From Oscillospiraceae bacterium (GTDB lineage: Bacteria; Bacillota; Clostridia; Oscillospirales; CAG-272): a stretch of 64,000 bases of DNA. The position numbers and the translations under genes are program-made. This document shows, one piece after another, positions 1-54,031 of the stretch. The stretch is from positions 158,560 through 222,559 of the forward strand of contig SVRT01000001.1 of NCBI GenBank assembly GCA_015064685.1, in the 5' to 3' direction. Position 1 is the stretch's first letter, and every line of letters starts with the position of its first letter. The notes beneath the pieces are model-generated. The model worked only from the letters and a program-made list of their open reading frames with translations, did no database searches and was not told the origin of the DNA.

Positions 1-1048
1 GGCTTGTATGGCTGATAAGCCTATGATACATCTTCTTCCTCATTGGAACTGGAAGAAGGGCGAGACTGTGCGCGTTGCCGCACCCTCAAACTGTGACGAG
101 GCTGAGCTTTTCCTCAACGGAAAGAGCCTCGGCAGAAAGGCTTGCGACCCTGTAAATACCGCCGAGTGGCAGGTGGAGTTTACCCCGGGCAGACTTCTTG
201 TCAAAGGCTATAAGAACGGCAAATGTGTTGCAAAGGCGGAGCAGAGAACTGCAGGAAAGCCTTACGCCGTAAAGCTTATGCCACAGATGGAGAGCATCAA
301 GAACGACGGTGCGGATACTGCAGTCGTAAATATTGCCATAGTTGACAAGCGTGGCATCGTTTGTCCTACTGCCGATAACCTCGTAAAATTTGAGATCGTC
401 GGAGACGGATATATTCGCGGAGTCGGTAACGGTGATCCTAATTCTCACGAGTCCGACGTTCTTCCGGAAAGACGCGCTTATTGCGGTCTTTGCCAGGCGC
501 TTGTAACCTCGTTTCTTGATGCAAAGAATATAAAGATCGTTGCTACTGGCGAGGGGCTTGAGAGCGCGGAGTATGACTTTACCGTTGAAGCGGTCGAGCA
601 GCCTATATGTCCCGAGATTGCAAGGATCACAGTGCTTGACAAGTTTACAATGTCAAAGGTGTATGCTCTTGACGACAAGCCCGATCCAAATATGTATATA
701 AGCGACGATGATATGAACTCTTTCACTCCCGTTGCATTCGTACACGGTGCGCTTCAGAAGGATTTCACTGGTGGATACCGTATATACAGAATGAAGACCA
801 AGGTTACATCAAGAACCGCAGATTACTTTATCAGATTTATCTGGGGTCATTGGGACGGTGTTTTCGTCTATGTCAACGGCAAATGCGTGCTTGATCTCCC
901 GTGGAGACACGCAGGACCGTACAAGACAGGCGCATTCAGGCTTTGCGAGGGCGAGGAGATAGATATCCGAATTCTCGTTCACGCACTCCCCGAGCATGCG
1001 AAGAGCGGTGCAGGCTTTGCCGACGCTATCTCGCTTGAGGAAGCATAA
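1..1048 (+). CDS. C-terminal part of a GH2 beta-galactosidase/glycosidase (5' truncated by window edge)
   Basis: 'IHLLPHWNW', 'SNCDEAELFLNGKSLG', 'GVGNGDPNSHE' are typical of GH2 C-terminal Ig-like/DUF4982 domains; frame is open to the window start. Confidence 0.85.
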   Translation, partial: ACMADKPMIHLLPHWNWKKGETVRVAAPSNCDEAELFLNGKSLGRKACDPVNTAEWQVEFTPGRLLVKGYKNGKCVAKAEQRTAGKPYAVKLMPQMESIKNDGADTAVVNIAIVDKRGIVCPTADNLVKFEIVGDGYIRGVGNGDPNSHESDVLPERRAYCGLCQALVTSFLDAKNIKIVATGEGLESAEYDFTVEAVEQPICPEIARITVLDKFTMSKVYALDDKPDPNMYISDDDMNSFTPVAFVHGALQKDFTGGYRIYRMKTKVTSRTADYFIRFIWGHWDGVFVYVNGKCVLDLPWRHAGPYKTGAFRLCEGEEIDIRILVHALPEHAKSGAGFADAISLEEA

Positions 1049-37174: not shown

Positions 37175-37203
37175 ATTGTATCGTTTTTTTGATGATTTGT
37201 CAA
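37175..37203 (-). promoter_or_regulatory. sigma-A promoter of tig-clpP-clpX
   Basis: Minus strand TTGACA-17 bp-TACAAT. Confidence 0.75.
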
Positions 37204-45654: not shown

Positions 45655-45753
45655 TAAACGACCATCCTTGAAAAGTGTCACAAAATAGCATTTTTGTGCA
45701 ATATATACTAAAAACACTGTGAAAGATTGTATACATTTTTCGTGCGAACACTA

Positions 45754-45782
45754 TTGACAGTCACGTGACCGCGTGATATAAT
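45754..45782 (+). promoter_or_regulatory. Consensus sigma-A promoter of nfeD-SPFH operon with palindromic spacer
   Basis: TTGACA-GTCACGTGACCGCGTGA-TATAAT; TCACG-N6-CGTGA inverted repeat in spacer. Confidence 0.85.
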
Positions 45783-45863
45783 TATATCAAGGTGAAACGC
45801 GGATGGGATTGTCGGATATCAGGCTATTGCGTAGCGTTACACGTGAGAAAGGAGTTTTTCATT

Positions 45864-46310
45864 ATGGAAGCGTATTTACCAACTATTATTTGGGCGGTCG
45901 TGTTCGTTGCATCTATATGGATAGAGGCAGAGACCGCTGAGATGATCTCGATCTGGTTTATGCCGGGAGCGGTCGTCGCACTTGTGCTGTCACTTTTCGA
46001 TATAGCGGTATGGATACAGTGCGTTGTATTTATGGCTATGTCGGTGGTTCTTCTCGTTGTCGCGAGAGTACTGCTGAAAAAGTACATCGTAAAAAAAGTT
46101 GGGCGGGAAAAGACCGACACCGATCTGCTTATCGGACGGCAGGTCAAGGTCGAAGAGGATATTGACAATGCCTCTGAGAAGGGCGCGGTCAGAGTCAACG
46201 GACAGATCTGGAGCGCAAGAATGACGAATGACGGCGACTCTGCATCAGCAGGAGAATTCGTTATCGTAGACAGCATATCGGGAGTTAAGCTGATATGCAG
46301 ACGAATCTGA
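45864..46310 (+). CDS. NfeD family protein (short YbbJ type)
   Basis: Three hydrophobic helices then OB fold 'LIGRQVKV...GAVRVNGQIWSAR...GVKLIC'; precedes SPFH gene. Confidence 0.92.
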   Translation: MEAYLPTIIWAVVFVASIWIEAETAEMISIWFMPGAVVALVLSLFDIAVWIQCVVFMAMSVVLLVVARVLLKKYIVKKVGREKTDTDLLIGRQVKVEEDIDNASEKGAVRVNGQIWSARMTNDGDSASAGEFVIVDSISGVKLICRRI

Positions 46311-46357
46311 TTTGGGTTATCAAACAATTTTAATATAAACAGAAAGGAATTATTTTT

Positions 46358-47296
46358 ATGACACCCGGAGTAATTGCACTTATCGTTGTAGGCGTTATCG
46401 CGCTTATCACAGTTATCGCGAACATTCACATAGTACCTCAGGCAAAGGCATACGTTATCGAGCGCCTTGGCGGTTATCACGCAACTTGGGGAACAGGTCT
46501 TCACTTCAAGATCCCCTTTATCGATAGGATCGCGAAGAAGATCAACAAGATGGAGCAGGTTGCAGACTTTCCCCCTCAGCCCGTTATCACGAAGGATAAC
46601 GTAAGAATGCAGATCGATACTGTCGTGTTCTATCAGATCACAGACCCTAAGCTCTATTCCTACGGTCACGCTACGCCTATGACCGCGATCGAGAATCTCA
46701 CGTCCACAACTCTCCGTAACATCATCGGTGAGATGGAGCTTGACAGCACTCTTACCTCGCGTGATATTATTAACTCGAAAATGCGCTCGATACTCGACGA
46801 AGCTACCGACCCTTGGGGAATCAAGGTAAGCCGTGTTGAGCTTAAGAACATCATTCCTCCCAAGGAGATACAGGATGCGATGGAGAAGCAGATGAAGGCT
46901 GAACGTGAAAGACGTGAGGCTATCCTTCGCGCTGAGGGTGAAAAGAACTCCGCGATCCTCGTTGCAGAGGGACGTAAGCAGTCTCAGATCCTTGACGCAG
47001 AGGCAGAAAAGCAGTCTCAGATCCTCAGAGCCGAGGCAGAGAAGCAGTCTCAGGTCCTCAGAGCAGAGGGTGAAGCAGAGGCTATACTCGCAGTACAGAG
47101 GGCAACCGCAGAGGGTATCAGAATGATCAACGAGGCTAACCCCGGTGAGGGTATGATCGCTATCAAGAGCCTTGAGACCTTTGAAAAGGTTGCTGATGGC
47201 AAGGCTACAAAGATCATTATCCCCTCCGAAATACAGAACGTTGCGGGACTCGTAGCGTCTATCAAGGGCGTTGCAGAGGACGACAAAAAGGCATAA
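46358..47296 (+). CDS. SPFH/stomatin-like protein (QmcA type)
   Basis: 'VIERLG', 'QPVITKDNV', 'TTLRNIIG', 'TDPWGIKVSRVE', 'MEKQMKAERERR', 11-aa coiled-coil repeats. Confidence 0.95.
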   Translation: MTPGVIALIVVGVIALITVIANIHIVPQAKAYVIERLGGYHATWGTGLHFKIPFIDRIAKKINKMEQVADFPPQPVITKDNVRMQIDTVVFYQITDPKLYSYGHATPMTAIENLTSTTLRNIIGEMELDSTLTSRDIINSKMRSILDEATDPWGIKVSRVELKNIIPPKEIQDAMEKQMKAERERREAILRAEGEKNSAILVAEGRKQSQILDAEAEKQSQILRAEAEKQSQVLRAEGEAEAILAVQRATAEGIRMINEANPGEGMIAIKSLETFEKVADGKATKIIIPSEIQNVAGLVASIKGVAEDDKKA

Positions 47297-47299
47297 TCA

Positions 47300-47521
47300 A
47301 TGAAAAGCACGGATATAAAGCTTGACTTCTGCCCGTTTTGTAACGGAAGTGAGTTTATTGAAGGCAAGCAATCGGGACATGCGTGCATCTCAGGATGCGA
47401 AAACGTCTGGAGCTCGATGGATCTCTACCACGTGATCTGCCGCGATTGCGGAAGTGTGGTCAGAAGCTACGTCAAGGATCCCGAGAAGCTGCTTAAGCGA
47501 CAAGACAGAAAAAGGGATTAA
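47300..47521 (+). CDS. Small zinc-ribbon protein
   Basis: 73 aa, 'CPFC...ICRDCGSVVRSYV'; starts 3 nt after SPFH stop. Confidence 0.7.
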   Translation: MKSTDIKLDFCPFCNGSEFIEGKQSGHACISGCENVWSSMDLYHVICRDCGSVVRSYVKDPEKLLKRQDRKRD

Positions 47522-47583
47522 GCCCCCTTTAAATTTGATGAGTGGGGGAGAGAAATCTCCCCCTTTGACTTTGGAAAGGGAAA

Positions 47584-48117
47584 ATGAAGAAATTTTTGTT
47601 GGTTTTTTATTTTGCCGTGTGTTTTTTGACGGCAATTAGTGCGGCTTTTTTCAGTCAGCACATCCATATATCGATGACCTCCCTTGGAATAGTAGCCGCG
47701 ATAGTCCTTTCTATCGTGTGTGCTTGGCTTATGCGCACGGGAAGATTGACGCGCGCGGGTCGTCTAAGGATCTTGTACGATTACGATTTCAAATACTCCA
47801 AAAGCGACGGAGATGGAAGTTTTGATGTTGACAAGAAGGATCCTCCTGTTACAGAAGCTCATATTGCGTTTTCAAGCTTTCTCTTTATAATATCCGCCGT
47901 GCTTATTCCGTTTGCAGTGTTCTTCTCAAATGAGGTGAAGCTTTGGGCGATAGGCGCCTATGGTACGCTTATACTCATTGAGACCTTTGTCGAGATCCTC
48001 GTCATTTCACTAAGAAGAACAAAAGCACTCACCGACATGCAAAAGCACGAAAAAGAAGAAGCCGAGCGGCTTCGCCGCGAGCAGGAGCAGCGCGAGCAAA
48101 TGGGGAAGTGGAAATAA
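47584..48117 (+). CDS. Hypothetical membrane protein (about 4 TM)
   Basis: Hydrophobic segments, charged C-terminal helix 'EQEQREQMGKWK'. Confidence 0.65.
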   Translation: MKKFLLVFYFAVCFLTAISAAFFSQHIHISMTSLGIVAAIVLSIVCAWLMRTGRLTRAGRLRILYDYDFKYSKSDGDGSFDVDKKDPPVTEAHIAFSSFLFIISAVLIPFAVFFSNEVKLWAIGAYGTLILIETFVEILVISLRRTKALTDMQKHEKEEAERLRREQEQREQMGKWK

Positions 48118-48138
48118 TTGATTGAGGAGGCATGCGCA

Positions 48139-48744
48139 ATGACAGAAAGAGCATTGAAAATACCGGGCTATGCTGCCCTATACGGAATAGCGGTTTTTAT
48201 TTCAAATTATTTTTGCTCGATGGCTTGTTTGAGCTTTAAATCAATTGCGTTTATTCCGATTGCCGAAAAGATTCCGTATGCCCTCCTGATAACTCTTGTT
48301 TTATCGGCTGACATTATCTTTAAGCTGGTTCTTCCGCTTGCATGTGTTTATTTTGTCATGCGATATACAGTTCCCAGACTCTATGCGCTTATGGATGGAC
48401 AGGGACAGGTGAAAAGCTTTATTCTTCATGTGCTTCCAATGGAGATCGTGAGATATATTGTTTGTTTGCTTTCTCTTGGACATTTGAAGCAGACAGGTTA
48501 TTTCGCGTTGTTGCCGACGTCTATTTTTGAAAATACCTACATAAGATGGAGCGGCAGACACAATGAAATCAGGAATTATCTTGACTATATCCCCGAGGAT
48601 TTTCTAGCGTATACTATATGTTACATTGTTTATGCTGCGGTATATTTGACTTTTGTCATACTAATATACAGAAAGTTTTGGAAGGTCGGACGGGAGGAGA
48701 GCGAGGAGCTTATTGTCTATGACAAAAAGCAACGCTTATATTGA
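48139..48744 (+). CDS. Hypothetical membrane protein
   Basis: RBS GAGGAGG before ATG 48139; about 4 hydrophobic segments. Confidence 0.6.
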   Translation: MTERALKIPGYAALYGIAVFISNYFCSMACLSFKSIAFIPIAEKIPYALLITLVLSADIIFKLVLPLACVYFVMRYTVPRLYALMDGQGQVKSFILHVLPMEIVRYIVCLLSLGHLKQTGYFALLPTSIFENTYIRWSGRHNEIRNYLDYIPEDFLAYTICYIVYAAVYLTFVILIYRKFWKVGREESEELIVYDKKQRLY

Positions 48745-48763
48745 CTGAATTGGAGGTAATGAC

Positions 48764-49375
48764 GTGGGATTTGTTGCACTTATGTACGTTGTCCAGATTA
48801 TTATTGAACTCATAATTTTGTATGGTTTATTTAAGCTTATCTGGTATGCGATCAAAATACTTAGGTTTAAGAGTATCATCAAAGAAATAGGAAAACGTCA
48901 GGGCATCAAGGTAGAGGCGAAAAGGAAGTTTTCCGAGAAGTTTTGGGGCAAAAAATTTGATGTTGATTACATAATAAGCGTCGGTGAAAAGAAATATGAA
49001 ATCACCGTTTTATCCTTTATTTCAACTCATGGACGATGGAATATCGAAAAAACAAGAACGAAATATTATGCGGAGAGCAGACGCGCGAGCGGTGTCTTCT
49101 TTGGAAAATATACAAACAGCAACGCACCCGATCATGTGTCTGAGTATAAGGGTGAGTGGAAGGTCAGAAGAAAAGAGCTTATTCTTTCACCTATCACAGA
49201 CGAATTTGAAAAGCAGATAATATTGATATATCCCAATACCAAAAGGGTAACGTACACCGATTCGCAGTATAATATAATCGATTATCACAGAATGGATAAA
49301 AGAAATATGATCGAAGGGCATCACGTCGTCGGTGTAAAAGAACTAATTGAGATCCTTGAAAAAGAAGATGAATAA
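48764..49375 (+). CDS. Hypothetical protein with N-terminal TM
   Basis: RBS GGAGGT before GTG; 203-aa ORF followed by terminator. Confidence 0.6.
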   Translation: MGFVALMYVVQIIIELIILYGLFKLIWYAIKILRFKSIIKEIGKRQGIKVEAKRKFSEKFWGKKFDVDYIISVGEKKYEITVLSFISTHGRWNIEKTRTKYYAESRRASGVFFGKYTNSNAPDHVSEYKGEWKVRRKELILSPITDEFEKQIILIYPNTKRVTYTDSQYNIIDYHRMDKRNMIEGHHVVGVKELIEILEKEDE

Positions 49376-49376
49376 T

Positions 49377-49414
49377 AAAAGGCTTTGCGCATTTTCGTTG
49401 CGCAAAGCTTTTTT
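49377..49414 (+). terminator. Rho-independent terminator
   Basis: AAAAGGCTTTGCGCA...TGCGCAAAGCTTTTTT. Confidence 0.8.
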
Positions 49415-49426
49415 GATCATAAATAA

Positions 49427-49853
49427 ACAAATTGCGGTTTAGCGGGGACGCGGGGGGGATGCGGGGGCGCGGGGAACGCGGGTCGCTTTTTGAAAAAAGC
49501 TCCGCAAAAACTTCCCCTATATTAGGTCCTTTTAGGGTGAAGTAGGATTTTTCGCCGCAAGCGGCTAAAAAAATCCCTCACTGACGTTTTTGTATTGATA
49601 GGGTGTTAAACCCAGCCGATAAAAAAACTTTAACCATAAAGAAAAACTAAGTTAAAGAAAGCCTTTCAAACGATTTTAAATACACTTGCAACACGATAGC
49701 AGTGGGGCTATGCAGATGCGACACGGTGTAGATTGATAAACCGTCTTGACTTGTATAAAATATACTTTGGGGTTTTGGGGGTGTGGGGGGCTTTTTTCCC
49801 TGGAAAAGCCCCCCACGCGCATCCCCCGTCCTCACCGATAAATCAAAATTGAA
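49427..49853. repeat. Non-coding inverted-repeat element 2 (MITE/REP-cluster-like)
   Basis: Termini AAATTGCGGTTTAGCGGGGACG..GGGGATGCG / CGCATCCCCCGTCCTCACCGATAAATCAAAATT; internal hairpins GCTTTTTgAAAAAAGC, GGATTTTT..AAAAATCC, GTGGGGGCTTTT..AAAAGCCCCCCAC. Confidence 0.75.
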
Positions 49854-49869
49854 ACACGAATAACAAAAA

Positions 49870-49903
49870 ACAAACACCTCAGCCGAGCGGCTGAGGTGTT
49901 TTG
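49870..49903 (-). terminator. Terminator after dac-like gene
   Basis: AAACACCTCAGCCG-ag-CGGCTGAGGTGTTT. Confidence 0.85.
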
Positions 49904-49911
49904 AGTCTACG

Positions 49912-51243
49912 TTAATATTTGTGTGTATATCCGCTCACGTTATGCGAGTGGCGTTTTTTTATTATGATCGCTATCGGGAGAGATATTGCCAGAAAAACGA
50001 GAGTTGCTATGAATGCTCGGCTCTTGGTATAGTCTCCAATCGCTGAGATAACTTTCATCACCGCATTTGCTTCGCAATCCTCGACAATGACGACGTCACA
50101 TTCACCGACAAGCTCGCCGTTGCAATAAACCGAGGCAACACCTATCTTGTCGCCTTTCTTTATTGGTGCGCGGAGCTTCTCGGAAATATATTCAACCTTG
50201 TAGGTAACGCTCGGACCCGAGTGATCGGGGATATAGACCGAAAGCTCCTCCGCGGTGGCATAATCCACCTTTTGAGTTCCCAGCGCAGTCATTGATATCT
50301 CAGCTTGACCGAGCACCTGTCCTTTGGAAAAGACTTTGTGGTCATTATATGTCTCACATACCCAGTTGACGAGCGTGTTTGCTGTGTCGTAGGCGAAAAT
50401 TTGCGTGCCGTCCTCGTTTTCGCTGCCACCAAGCACGATGCAGATATATTCCGCACCGTCATCCTGCGCAAGTGTAATTACGCTCCAGCCGCCCGCTTCC
50501 CCCGAAATACCCGCGTTCATACCGCGGCAGGCAGAGTTATAATAAGCCTGCGTGCTTCGTGAGGATATGAGATAATTTCTGTTATACACCGTTCTTGCAC
50601 CGCTTTTATTTGTCGCGCCGATATCGTGATGCTTTGCGGAGGATATCTCCATATAAAGATCATTGTCAGATGCCTCGAGTGCGATCTTGAGGGTATCGGC
50701 AACGGTCGTAACCATAGCCGCATTATCGGGATAGCCTATGGGATTTGTATAGCTCGTTGAAGTTGCGCCAAGTTTGTGTGCCTTTTCGTTCATGAGAGTC
50801 ACGAATTTGTCCGCATTGCCGCCGCAAATGCTTGCGATCACGTAAGCCGCATCGTTATATGAGCCACATATCGCGCCGTAGAGCAGATCCTTTATCCTTA
50901 TCTCCTCGCCGTCCTTAAGCCCCATCGAATACCCGCCCGCACCGGAGAGCATGTCTGAGGAAACGGTAACGGTCTCGTTGAGTCTGTCCGAGAGCATCTC
51001 GCAGGCGAGAAGTCCCATCGTAACCTTTGCGCTCGTTGAAGTGTTCAGAAGCTCGTCTTCGTTGCGGGACGTTATCAGCTTGTTGTGTGTCTTATCGTAC
51101 AGGCAATATGCGCCCGTATCGGTTATCACAGGCGGCGTGGGAGAATCTGCGGCATTTATCGGGAAAATAAAAAAAGAGGAGACGGTAATAAGTGTTAAAA
51201 CCGTAAGGCATAAAAGCCCTATCAATTTTCTCTTTGGTCTCAT
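49912..51243 (-). CDS. Peptidase S11 D-Ala-D-Ala carboxypeptidase homolog with degenerate active site
   Basis: Signal peptide, 'DLLYG...SYNDAA', 'FVTLMNEKA..LG...T.YTNP.G', C-terminal PBP5 domain 'APIKKGDKIG' and TM anchor. Confidence 0.85.
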   Translation of the reverse strand: MRPKRKLIGLLCLTVLTLITVSSFFIFPINAADSPTPPVITDTGAYCLYDKTHNKLITSRNEDELLNTSTSAKVTMGLLACEMLSDRLNETVTVSSDMLSGAGGYSMGLKDGEEIRIKDLLYGAICGSYNDAAYVIASICGGNADKFVTLMNEKAHKLGATSTSYTNPIGYPDNAAMVTTVADTLKIALEASDNDLYMEISSAKHHDIGATNKSGARTVYNRNYLISSRSTQAYYNSACRGMNAGISGEAGGWSVITLAQDDGAEYICIVLGGSENEDGTQIFAYDTANTLVNWVCETYNDHKVFSKGQVLGQAEISMTALGTQKVDYATAEELSVYIPDHSGPSVTYKVEYISEKLRAPIKKGDKIGVASVYCNGELVGECDVVIVEDCEANAVMKVISAIGDYTKSRAFIATLVFLAISLPIAIIIKKRHSHNVSGYTHKY

Positions 51244-51262
51244 TGCCGTTCTCCTTTTTGAT

Positions 51263-52231
51263 TTATACGTTATTGTTTTTAAAGAATTCTACCGTGCGGT
51301 CACGGTCGCGCTCGATCGCGCTTGTAAGCTCCTCAAGTGAGGAAAATTTTTTCTCCTCGCGCAGATACGCGCAGAACTCGACCTTCATTTTTCTGCCGTA
51401 AAGCTCGCCTGAAAAGTCGATGATATAGGTCTCGCAGTTCTTTTTGTGATCGTCGCCCGACTCAATGCTTGGGCGAATTCCCACGTTTGAAACACCCATA
51501 TAGCTGCTACCGTCATCAAAGCTGCATCGGGTCGCGTAAACGCCGTTTTTCATCGGCGCGAAATTCTCGGGAAAGAGCTGATTAGCGGTCGGGAAGCCGA
51601 GCCGTCTGCCAAGCTTTTTTCCTTCGGAAACCGGTACGCTTACAGATATCGGTCTTCCGAGCATTGCGTTTGCGATTTCGACCTCACCTTGCGCCAGATG
51701 CTTCCGTACCGCGCTCGACCCGACCGTCTCACCTGAAAGCTTGATCTCGGGAACCGTCACGGTGTTTTCTTTGCCAAGCTCCGCTTCAAGCAGAGCAGCA
51801 TCTCCAAGCCCCAAATATCCAAAGTGATGATCGTATCCGCAGACTGTGCCTACGCATCCAAGCCGAGTGACAAGGATACCGTTTATGAATTCCTTTGCCC
51901 CGATATGTCTCAGCTCTTCAAATCTTCCCATTACGACAAAGTCTGCGCCACAAGTGAAAAGAAGATCGATGCGCTCATCCTTGGTGGTAAGGACAGTTGG
52001 CAATATTCCGTTGATAATTGCCCCCGGGCTTTCCTCAAAGCACCAGACACCGACAAGCTCAGCGCCTATTTTTTCTTTAAGCCGGTTTGCCTCTTCGATC
52101 AGCCTTTTGTGGGCAATATGCACTCCGTCAAAGGTGCCGAGCGCGATCACAGTACGTGTCTTTGTGAGATCGTGATCGATCTTGCCGCGGAAGGTGACCT
52201 CGAGCTTGGGCTCTGTAATGTCAGTTTTCAT
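51263..52231 (-). CDS. ribF: Bifunctional riboflavin kinase/FAD synthetase
   Basis: 'LGTFDGVHIAH', 'GYDHHFG', 'GRRLGFPTAN', 'NVGIRPS', 'LREEKKF'. Confidence 0.95.
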   Translation of the reverse strand: MKTDITEPKLEVTFRGKIDHDLTKTRTVIALGTFDGVHIAHKRLIEEANRLKEKIGAELVGVWCFEESPGAIINGILPTVLTTKDERIDLLFTCGADFVVMGRFEELRHIGAKEFINGILVTRLGCVGTVCGYDHHFGYLGLGDAALLEAELGKENTVTVPEIKLSGETVGSSAVRKHLAQGEVEIANAMLGRPISVSVPVSEGKKLGRRLGFPTANQLFPENFAPMKNGVYATRCSFDDGSSYMGVSNVGIRPSIESGDDHKKNCETYIIDFSGELYGRKMKVEFCAYLREEKKFSSLEELTSAIERDRDRTVEFFKNNNV

Positions 52232-52550
52232 TGTCACTGTTATTTTCACCGTAAACAGACGAGAGATGCTCGATGTATGTCTTGACCATATCTTCGATAA
52301 GCTCGTCGCGGTCAACTCTGTTTATCATAGTGCGAGCGTTCTTGTAGTTCGAGATATGCGTAGGGTCGTCGGATTCGATATATCCCACAAGCTGAGAGAC
52401 GGGATTATATCCGCCCTCGGTGATGGTGCGGCAGATCTCATAGATCAGCGCTCTCGGATCTTCCTGTGTCTCCTCCGGAAGGATGGGGGCATCTGTCTCG
52501 GGGACGTTCTTTCCGATAATAATTTTCAGTCCGTTATTTTCAAGAATCAT
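52221..52550 (-). CDS. IreB/ReoM (DUF965) family regulatory protein, divergent
   Basis: 'GYNPVSQLVGYI..DDPTHISNYKNARTMINRVDRDELIEDMV'. Confidence 0.85.
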   Translation of the reverse strand: MILENNGLKIIIGKNVPETDAPILPEETQEDPRALIYEICRTITEGGYNPVSQLVGYIESDDPTHISNYKNARTMINRVDRDELIEDMVKTYIEHLSSVYGENNSDNEN

Positions 52551-52581
52551 GTAAAAAGTAGCCTTTCAATGTGTTGGGTTT

Positions 52582-53115
52582 TCATTGCTCCTCGGAGTCT
52601 GTGCCGAGAAGCTCCTCTCTGTCTGCGAGTCTTTTATACTGACCGAGCTTGCCGAATCCGATAATTATTCCGATATAAACGAGAGAATTGAGAAGGAAGA
52701 AAGGAATAAAGTCGAGCCTTGTGAGCGAGCTTGTCAATGCATTGCTGTTGAGATCAGAGCCGAAGCGAATAAGCGCAGTTATCGATCTTACTCCACCTGC
52801 GGAAAATGCCTCAAAGTTGAAGAGAAGCGCAAAAACGAGATGAAGCAGAGTAGCGATAGCGCCCGATATTAAAGTTTCGGGAATAGAAAAGTATGCGGTT
52901 TTATATCCCTCACGGTAGGAAATCACCGCAAGGAGTGCGTTAACACCCACAGTGTAGAGCAGTGCGCGTATCACCGTGAGCGAAAAATACTCGGTAACTA
53001 CGAAAAGATTGACTATCTTCACAGCGAGTATCTCCGCGCACATAACGATAACGCAGGATATCAGCATATACACAGCGTACACGAGTGAGCTTACGAGAAT
53101 ATCAATTTTTTTCAT
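52582..53115 (-). CDS. Hypothetical membrane protein (4 TM)
   Basis: Four hydrophobic segments; in same-strand run with about 30-bp gaps. Confidence 0.7.
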   Translation of the reverse strand: MKKIDILVSSLVYAVYMLISCVIVMCAEILAVKIVNLFVVTEYFSLTVIRALLYTVGVNALLAVISYREGYKTAYFSIPETLISGAIATLLHLVFALLFNFEAFSAGGVRSITALIRFGSDLNSNALTSSLTRLDFIPFFLLNSLVYIGIIIGFGKLGQYKRLADREELLGTDSEEQ

Positions 53116-53147
53116 TTTTTCAACAAATTTTCAGTTATGGTTGGTTT

Positions 53148-53954
53148 TCAGATTTTTTTACAGATGAGCTTAACACCGTTGATGCTCTGAATGATGACTG
53201 TTTCGCCCGATTGAGCTATTCCGTTCGCGTCCTTCATTCGCGCGCTCCATTCCTGACCGTTGATCTTTACGGTGCCTGTTTCCTCGCGGTTATTTATCGG
53301 TTCAACGACCTTGACACGTCTGCCGATGATAAGATCTGTGTCGGTTTTTCTGTTACCCTTCATTTTAGGAGCCTTCTGGTTGTAAAGAGCCTCGAGCTTA
53401 TCGTCAGCGTGCTTTTTTACAAGTGTTGCGTAATAGGCTACGATGATTATTTCAAGCGCGTTGGTAAGTCGCTCTCTCGCACCCTCTACGGTCTCCTCGT
53501 ACGTGTCCGTGACGTTCTCAATTGTATCTCTGATAGACCCGATGGTACATTCATCGTACGTAACGAGCATGTCAAGGATCTTGCAGATGTAATCGTAGAG
53601 AACCGAATCGGCAATAATGTCGTCGCGGCGGTCATCCACGCGACCGTTGATGTACTGAATCAGAAATGCAATGCGGTCGAGCTGCATGCAGGAGCGGAGC
53701 ATATTGATGATGAGAATATGCGCGACCTGATTTATGTTATATTTTTTGAGCTTGGAATTCTCGACCCATCCGCGCTTTGTCCAGTTCTGCAGAGTTGTGC
53801 CGTCGATACCCGAAATATCGCGTATCTGTGTGAGCATAACCCCGTCGGAAATAAAGAAGATTTTAGAGAGAAACTCAAGACCGGTAACACCGCCAAGCTC
53901 ACGGCGGAGCAGCTTTGTGCCGGGAATATATTCGTCCTGTATTCGCAGATTCAT
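53148..53954 (-). CDS. DUF1836 (MerR-like HTH) protein fused to C-terminal NfeD OB-fold domain
   Basis: N-terminal 'GIDGTTLQNWTKRGWV....KKYNINQVAHILIINMLR'; last 66 aa align without gaps to the NfeD at 46110-46310; RBS GAGGT. Confidence 0.85.
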   Translation of the reverse strand: MNLRIQDEYIPGTKLLRRELGGVTGLEFLSKIFFISDGVMLTQIRDISGIDGTTLQNWTKRGWVENSKLKKYNINQVAHILIINMLRSCMQLDRIAFLIQYINGRVDDRRDDIIADSVLYDYICKILDMLVTYDECTIGSIRDTIENVTDTYEETVEGARERLTNALEIIIVAYYATLVKKHADDKLEALYNQKAPKMKGNRKTDTDLIIGRRVKVVEPINNREETGTVKINGQEWSARMKDANGIAQSGETVIIQSINGVKLICKKI

Positions 53955-54002
53955 GTTATACCTCAAGTGATTTGTTATATATAGATAAACTTACGTAGTA
54001 TA

Positions 54003-54031
54003 ATTATATATCACGGTCGCGTGATTGTCAA
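54003..54031 (-). promoter_or_regulatory. Consensus sigma-A promoter of the DUF1836-NfeD operon with palindromic spacer
   Basis: Minus strand TTGACA-ATCACGCGACCGTGATA-TATAAT; ATCACG-N4-CGTGAT inverted repeat. Confidence 0.85.

Follow-up and report, generated by a model that had tools for sequence, protein, structure and literature searches.

The regulation of scaffolds of the SPFH/flotillin type and of their NfeD partners is poorly understood, and in Bacillus subtilis it falls to the broad SigW stress regulon. In this organism, overproduction of membrane proteins induces htpX as well as the NfeD-flotillin operon yuaF-floT-yuaI, the latter as a SigW response (PMC3514339). The htpX gene (ykrL) is repressed by YkrK, a regulator of a novel type, via a defined, published operator (PMC8767453, PMC11790237, and PMC11841835), and proteins of the family DUF1836 were predicted as helix-turn-helix transcription factors encoded beside hemolysin III genes (PMC3146951). 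Here we describe a stretch of 64,000 nucleotides (nt; the window, C34:158560-222559) from the draft genome of an Oscillospiraceae bacterium (the source genome, G000; 2.38 Mb, 47.5% G+C, 36 contigs), which contains an nfeD-SPFH operon and the gene of a DUF1836 regulator fused to an NfeD domain. Sequence comparison supports the conclusion that the promoters of both, P_nfeD and P_duf, share a functional operator-like element (Table 1).

YkrK, which we take to be the DUF1836 protein of B. subtilis, is said to have been described as the htpX (ykrL) repressor by Marciniak et al. and by Lin et al., both in J Bacteriol in 2012, the latter reportedly finding that ykrK is not autoregulated. The Pfam model of DUF1836, PF08876, matches in the B. 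subtilis control genome; a text tying YkrK to MerR, DUF1836 or PF08876 was not found in the literature searched. For operons of NfeD and SPFH genes we know of no dedicated repressor, and none appeared in the literature searched for DUF1836 and YkrK, a search that was not directed at SPFH regulation in general. Activation by MerR-type proteins normally needs a spacer of 19-20 base pairs (bp) between the -35 and -10 boxes.

Orthologous loci were drawn from 60 relatives, 36 of them of the same genus as the source genome (61 genomes searched in total), and the DUF1836 genes of 80 more species with 36-67% protein identity served as a further sample. Within the genus, 27 DUF1836 loci (L001-L027; L028 ends at a contig edge and was left out) and 27 nfeD loci (L031-L057) were compared. 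Footprinting of these promoters revealed a degenerate 16-bp palindrome, ACRRTC-N4-GAYYGY, the first base of which is base 4 of the -35 box; at P_nfeD it covers the last three bases of this box and extends 13 bases into the spacer. The pattern TTGACAATC-N4-GAYYG is present in all 27 DUF1836 promoters with usable upstream sequence and in 22 of the 27 nfeD promoters. In detail, the former carry cTTGACAATC-N4-GAYYGT 5' of a -10 box and the latter 22 aTTGACAATC-N4-GACYGYGTGATATAAT. Information content amounts to approximately 2.0 bits at ATC and at GA..G and to 0.3-1.0 bits in the central N4, for which 16 different tetramers occur among the DUF1836 sites and 11 among the nfeD sites. All 22 site-bearing nfeD promoters furthermore possess a TGn extended -10 box, which is common in promoters of the source genome as well.

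The initial annotation had noticed TCACG(T/C)GACCG one base past the -35 box of both window promoters, described as two perfect TTGACA-N17-TATAAT promoters, and sequence and coordinates of this observation hold: both spacers open with g or a, followed by TCACG-T/C-GACCG. Its proposal of a TCACG...CGTGA dyad as the operator is not borne out, since TCACG occurs in only 5 of the 27 DUF1836 sites and 5 of the 22 nfeD sites, and both arms in one and three of them, respectively. TCACG-N4/6-CGTGA was thus rejected as a functional unit; it is not conserved, and most of its right arm falls on the extended -10 box (TGn). Three of the four promoters chosen for comparison (15745, 26353, and 62405) are indeed perfect and devoid of the motif, whereas that at 37203 did not come out as a perfect TTGACA-N17-TATAAT promoter in our scan. 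Nor does perfect consensus distinguish the two promoters, as the source genome contains 196 such sites. Near-consensus promoters with an extended -10 box are very widely used there, and a "perfect promoter" marks nothing special; many of the 196 show TGTGA or ATGA directly 5' of the -10 box.

The site itself is rare in the source genome. TCACGYGACCG occurs eight times on both strands of the 2.38 Mb, with one palindromic locus counted twice, and its only copies within promoters are those of P_nfeD and P_duf. A scan with a scoring matrix made from the orthologous operator sites gave three top scores of 32.1, 30.5, and 28.3, followed by 19.3, and the same three sites are the only ones among the 196 perfect promoters (3/196) with nTC-N4-GA in register. 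The third site is situated on contig C25 upstream of a gene encoding a 185-amino-acid (aa) protein with two membrane helices (2-TM) and a Cys-rich, zinc-ribbon-like C-terminal tail, for which no Pfam family was found above cut-off. Across the 61 genomes the pattern TTGACAATCNNNNGAYYG gave 76 matches in 35 genomes; the control read backwards gave none.

Presence of the site largely follows presence of the regulator gene. Five genomes of the genus (G001, G008, G014, G015, and G028) have no DUF1836 match, and the nfeD loci found in four of them (L041, L043, L039, and L036) all lack the site; these four are among the five site-less nfeD promoters of the genus. The five genomes contain 0, 0, 0, 1, and 1 matches of TTGACAATCNNNNGAYYG, of which that in G015 has no -10 box behind it and that in G028 is located at a contig end. 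The five are mutually related and represent one or two independent events.

In other families of the order, homologues with 30-38% identity have retained a palindrome at this register. Among the relatives, three sequence types of perfect palindrome occur. ACGGTC-N4-GACCGT, which is perfect, was found in G006, G010, G011, and G030 and AAGTTC-GTTT-GAACTT in G053, and the 80 further species show ACAATC/GAATGT, ACATTC/GAATGT, and ACGTTC/GAACGT types. Overall, a palindromic promoter was found at 114 of 119 DUF1836 genes by a loose palindrome rule which itself imposed the two innermost base pairs, so that these pairs are uninformative; at the outer positions, complementarity amounts to 80/114 and 92/114. 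Four of the 114 have odd left halves and are perhaps spurious. With the same rule no such promoter was found for L159, L171, L172, and L173, and in case of L099 the palindrome lies farther upstream. Of 111 promoters, 108 have a spacer of 17 bp and the remaining three one of 15 bp. As far as can be read from these sequences, approximately 110 of the 119 DUF1836 promoters from other Clostridia have co-varying versions of the site at an unchanged register, and the half-sites co-vary by lineage across a span of 30-100% protein identity.

This co-variation bears on the question whether a different transcription factor binds the palindrome, with the DUF1836 gene being merely one of its targets. The tie between protein and DNA is an inferred one, and a coherent set of membrane targets would fit a different envelope-stress regulator equally well. 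Against this stand the DUF1836 gene as the sole constant across about 110 promoters, the half-sites changing with the lineage, the lack of promoter-type sites in the DUF1836-less genomes of the genus, including their nfeD promoters, and the fact that, apart from the gene of the regulator itself, the targets differ between genera. We therefore regard another factor as very unlikely. Still more improbable, to a degree that we reject it, is a relic without regulatory role, left by duplication of the promoter along with the NfeD domain. It would account for the 57% identity between the NfeD domains of the two downstream genes in the source genome and for the identity of P_nfeD and P_duf at 24 of 29 positions; however, this likeness ends at the promoter edges, the N4 drifts freely while the half-sites are fixed, unrelated genes bear the same site, and the site is shared by genomes whose regulator has no NfeD domain.

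The regulator gene is the sole one in the source genome matched by PF08876 (residues 43-121, 43.7 bits vs. a cut-off of 27). Its fused NfeD-C domain is the one that is 57% identical to the NfeD protein of the same genome, and the fusion is restricted to G000 and G009, all other orthologues having a length of approximately 195 aa. Families were assigned with Pfam and NCBIfam, RNAs with Rfam, and the fold was studied with an AlphaFold2 (AF2) model, Foldseek against the Protein Data Bank (PDB), and a wide structural search (VIA). The regulator models as a MerR-like winged helix and as a predicted dimer. The AF2 model has a confidence (pLDDT) of 95.7, and in the VIA search MerR-family regulators occupy ranks 1-17, 19, and 20 with modest Z scores of 5.1-7.4 (e.g., 2vz4 with Z 7.4 and a root mean square deviation of 3.2 over 91 aligned residues). 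Besides the DUF1836 cut-off, ten of ten longer DUF1836 homologues pass that of the Pfam model MerR_1 (23.3-32.3 bits vs. a cut-off of 21.6), which is found in 21-63% of the members of Atlas clusters. For the homodimer model, an ipSAE score of 0.70 was obtained compared to 0.00 for the best control, with a contact agreement between runs of at least 56% and a partner pLDDT of at least 82; in the modelled interface, helix 165-194 pairs with its counterpart in antiparallel orientation. In the benchmark, 20 of 30 solved one-chain pairs and 1 of 23 solved single chains attained this ipSAE mark, and since structures of MerR dimers have been solved, the dimer model may have passed owing to its resemblance to them. 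A PDB sequence search with the regulator returned only a chance-level match (E 0.22), and no NCBIfam model matched the regulator, the NfeD protein or the adjoining membrane proteins.

Ten homologues (P0158, P0161, P0163, P0167, P0177, P0187, P0190, P0197, P0210, and P0213) have lengths of 308-526 aa. Their C-terminal extensions matched no Pfam family and may represent other sensor fusions akin to the NfeD fusion.

Taking these observations together, we consider it likely that the shared element is the DUF1836 operator and that a MerR-like dimer binds it and represses its own gene and nfeD-SPFH. The site would span about -32 to -17, centred near -24.5, and thus occupy most of the 17-bp spacer and bases 4-6 of the -35 box. 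A dimer bound there, on an otherwise consensus promoter (TTGACA, TGn, TATAAT), would exclude sigma region 4 and block RNA polymerase. In the source genome, the DUF1836 dimer would accordingly repress three promoters, i.e., its own, that of nfeD-SPFH, and that of the 2-TM gene on C25. Repression is the most likely mode because the promoters are already of consensus type with an optimal 17-bp spacer; the preference of the initial annotation for simple repression over twist activation is thus favoured by the comparison. We infer three points, namely binding of the site by DUF1836, its action as a repressor, and a signal related to the membrane. Membrane sensing is suggested by the fact that all targets are membrane proteins, by the conserved and probably co-transcribed membrane protein, and by the acquired NfeD partner-binding domain.

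The same site might be bound by DUF1836 with a different outcome, namely activation of the MerR type or dual repression and activation by remodelling of the spacer. The MerR-like fold, the MerR_1 matches of the homologues, and a centre near -24.5 in the spacer, where operators of the MerR family sit, all fit such a mode. Nevertheless, we hold it to be unlikely: 108 of 111 promoters have the optimal spacer of 17 bp, whereas activation of the MerR type compensates for one of 19-20 bp, the -35 box, TGn motif, and -10 box already conform to the consensus, and three bases of the -35 box are covered by the site. Furthermore, YkrK, probably the one characterised relative, is described as a repressor (PMC8767453).

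Several points weigh against repression by a MerR-like DUF1836 dimer. The sites of the source genome itself are palindromic at only four of six pairs, and the nfeD promoter L038 lacks the site although its genome (G036) has the regulator. The regulator of the source genome shows no Pfam MerR_1 match at E <= 0.01, Foldseek against the PDB returned nothing for it at E <= 0.001, and Z scores of 5-7 are in a range which VIA itself calls common for helical models. The identity of the binder rests on co-occurrence and on the site at the regulator's own promoter. MerR proteins that bind in the spacer can act as activators, too. Finally, in two of five genomes from other genera the second site fronts a gene for the ATPase of an ABC transporter.

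These five genomes belong to three genera and have operators of the ACATTC or ACGTTC type. Each contains one site at its own DUF1836 gene, and four of the five contain a second one, with the exception of G065, in which no second site was found. In case of L189 (G062) and L193 (G064), the second site, an ACATTC-N4-GAATG operator, is followed by a leader of approximately 300 nt and then by the ATPase gene mentioned above; the second site of L191 has no open reading frame (ORF) behind it according to a crude ORF finder, and that of L192 is seemingly intragenic. Neither nfeD nor SPFH was found behind the second site in any of the five genomes. As the second target differs outside the lineages described so far, the SPFH link is therefore lineage-specific.

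Within these lineages, the regulon of the source genome comprises three promoters, which drive the regulator and the 177-aa gene next to it, nfeD-SPFH, and the 2-TM zinc-ribbon gene on C25. Sites with a proper -10 box occur in relatives upstream of genes of the 2-TM zinc-ribbon type (clearly at 12 loci, possibly also at L070 and L081), upstream of a polytopic membrane protein of 416-447 aa (L064, L068, L076, L080, and L082), upstream of a second SPFH paralogue (L069, L077, and L083), and upstream of a 187-aa membrane protein (L075). Candidate partners are now assigned to several membrane-protein families without a Pfam model. Apart from shared promoter sites, the gene arrangements provide independent links between regulator and SPFH, namely a DUF1836-NfeD-SPFH operon in G048, a DUF1836-SPFH2 operon in G053, and the fusion in G000 and G009.

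The 177-aa gene is probably co-transcribed with the regulator, and no terminator-like site was found in the gap between the two. At 21 of 28 loci of the genus, and also at L106, a homologue is encoded behind the DUF1836 gene. The protein, to which neither Pfam nor NCBIfam assigns a family, may serve the regulator as a partner or sensor.

The initial annotation had proposed that the fusion protein autoregulates and controls nfeD-SPFH in a circuit of two promoters. This interpretation is partly supported by the sequences: the shared site is present on both promoters, both belong to the regulon, and the circuit stands, but the half-sites differ from those proposed, the fusion is not general (2 of 61 genomes), and the regulon is larger, with a third promoter in the source genome. 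That the similarity might reflect a duplication relic only, as had been allowed for, is contradicted by the fusion-free genomes and by the unrelated genes with the site. The expectation of a first operator for DUF1836 is probably wrong given that the YkrK operator is published (PMC8767453 and PMC11790237); the priority is doubtful to the extent that YkrK is a DUF1836 protein. In that case, the element would not be the first DUF1836 operator, yet both its consensus and its regulon would be new.

The partner-binding domain fused to the regulators of G000 and G009 suggests that the SPFH assembly may itself feed back on the repressor. A more far-reaching scheme, which we put forward tentatively and hold to be possible rather than probable, is that DUF1836 reports the state of the membrane scaffold: free SPFH or SPFH-NfeD would titrate the fused repressor off the DNA to the membrane, and in case of unfused regulators the 177-aa protein would act as the tether. 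A direct protein feedback loop of this kind would set the stoichiometry of SPFH and NfeD, and, as a transcriptional sensor dedicated to a flotillin-type scaffold of bacteria, it would be the first of its kind.

At all 30 loci examined, the NfeD gene is followed by a Band_7 gene. The SPFH protein of the window scores 122.6 bits against the hflK model TIGR01933, which is under the cut-off of 159.4. Past the terminator-like hairpin, three ORFs of 177, 208, and 203 aa follow in a row on the plus strand (47584-49375); these matched no family above cut-off, with a weak DUF2207_C match only. Homologues of the first of them are situated after SPFH in several relatives.

Additional sequence elements were observed around the nfeD promoter. 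Upstream of its -35 box, two TTGTRCAA-like boxes, TTGTGCAA and TTGTATAC, are located 33 bp apart at 45694-45701 and 45727-45734 and are both kept in most nfeD promoters of the genus. In its strict form, the two-box pattern occurs just once in the source genome, but TTTGTGCAA(A/T) occurs 33 times, several of these upstream of other promoters; the boxes may belong to the promoter as an upstream element or be the site of a second regulator. Located 5 bp 5' of the -35 box, a GAA triplet (45746-45748) is conserved in both promoter sets with 1.4-2.0 bits, except for P_duf of the source genome, in which AAA stands instead, and could be an additional contact for the regulator or RNA polymerase. In one clade (L040, L045-L048, and L050) a second inverted repeat, ACAATC-N6-GATTGC, occurs in the nfeD 5' leader approximately 15 nt past the -10 box, which could represent a second operator of different spacing or an RNA hairpin. 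In case of L033 (G021), the operator promoter of nfeD is located about 250 nt 5' of the start codon, and the leader is long and G+C-rich with repeated GAAGG/CAAAGG-like segments. No Rfam family reached the gathering score between 44000 and 55500 of the window, the nfeD leader included.

Table 1. Positions of the operators, promoters, and genes of the window and of the third site of the source genome
Feature	Position	Strand	Description
P_nfeD	45754..45782	+	TTGACA 45754-45759; 17-bp spacer gTCACGTGACCGcgtga; TGn 45774-45776; TATAAT 45777-45782
O_nfeD	45757..45772		ACAGTC-ACGT-GACCGC; matrix score 28.3, third best in source genome
nfeD, 148 aa	45864..46310	+	N-terminal membrane helices and C-terminal NfeD OB-fold; PF01957, E 7.6e-13
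SPFH/Band_7 (HflK-like), 312 aa	46358..47296	+	PF01145, E 1e-41
73-aa ORF	47300..47521	+	possible last operon gene
Terminator-like hairpin	47544..47563	+	consensus scan; would end the nfeD-SPFH transcript
177-aa polytopic membrane protein	52582..53115	-	33 bp 3' of regulator
Regulator gene, 268 aa	53148..53954	-	fusion of DUF1836 and NfeD-C (Pfam)
Regulator residues 1-194	53954-53373	-	DUF1836, predicted MerR-like winged helix with long C-terminal dimerisation helix
Regulator residues ~195-268			C-terminal OB-fold of NfeD, lacking the membrane helices (Pfam match 207-267)
P_duf	54003..54031	-	TTGACA 54031-54026; 17-bp spacer aTCACGCGACCGtgata; TATAAT 54008-54003
O_duf	54013..54028		minus-strand reading ACAATC-ACGC-GACCGT; highest matrix score of source genome (32.1)
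Third site of source genome	C25:87512-87530	-	upstream of 185-aa 2-TM zinc-ribbon membrane protein

The comparison thus yields a putative operator, ACRRTC-N4-GAYYGY, found in more than 100 species, for a widespread and barely studied regulator family of gut Clostridia, together with a small, coherent regulon of membrane proteins and a natural fusion that hints at a testable sensing mechanism.

Compared to the described systems, the likeness to YkrK lies in the theme of membrane stress, under which htpX and yuaF-floT are both induced in B. subtilis (PMC3514339). The targets differ, as the regulon of the source genome consists of nfeD-SPFH and small membrane proteins and not of htpX; its Peptidase_M48 gene is located on C10, a contig without any of the 13 matrix hits that reach a score of 12. 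Moreover, regulator promoters of the type described here always carry the site, whereas autoregulation of ykrK is reportedly absent. The NfeD-flotillin operon of B. subtilis is under SigW (PMC3514339) and not YkrK.

Operons such as yuaF-floT and yqeZ-floA of B. subtilis or ybbJ-qmcA of Escherichia coli share with that of the window a short membrane-anchored NfeD protein with an OB-fold, followed by SPFH. With the MerR family (MerR, CueR, SoxR, TipAL, and BmrR, as well as repressors, e.g., CvkR) the DUF1836 regulator would have in common the winged helix-turn-helix, the long antiparallel dimer helix, and a palindromic site in the spacer between the -35 and -10 boxes. Its promoters differ by a spacer of 17 bp instead of 19-20 bp and by the overlap of the site with the -35 box. 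The protein itself differs by a helical insert (residues ~104-158) between the wing and the dimer helix and by the lack of a recognisable effector domain, in place of which the regulators of G000 and G009 carry the fused NfeD OB-fold.

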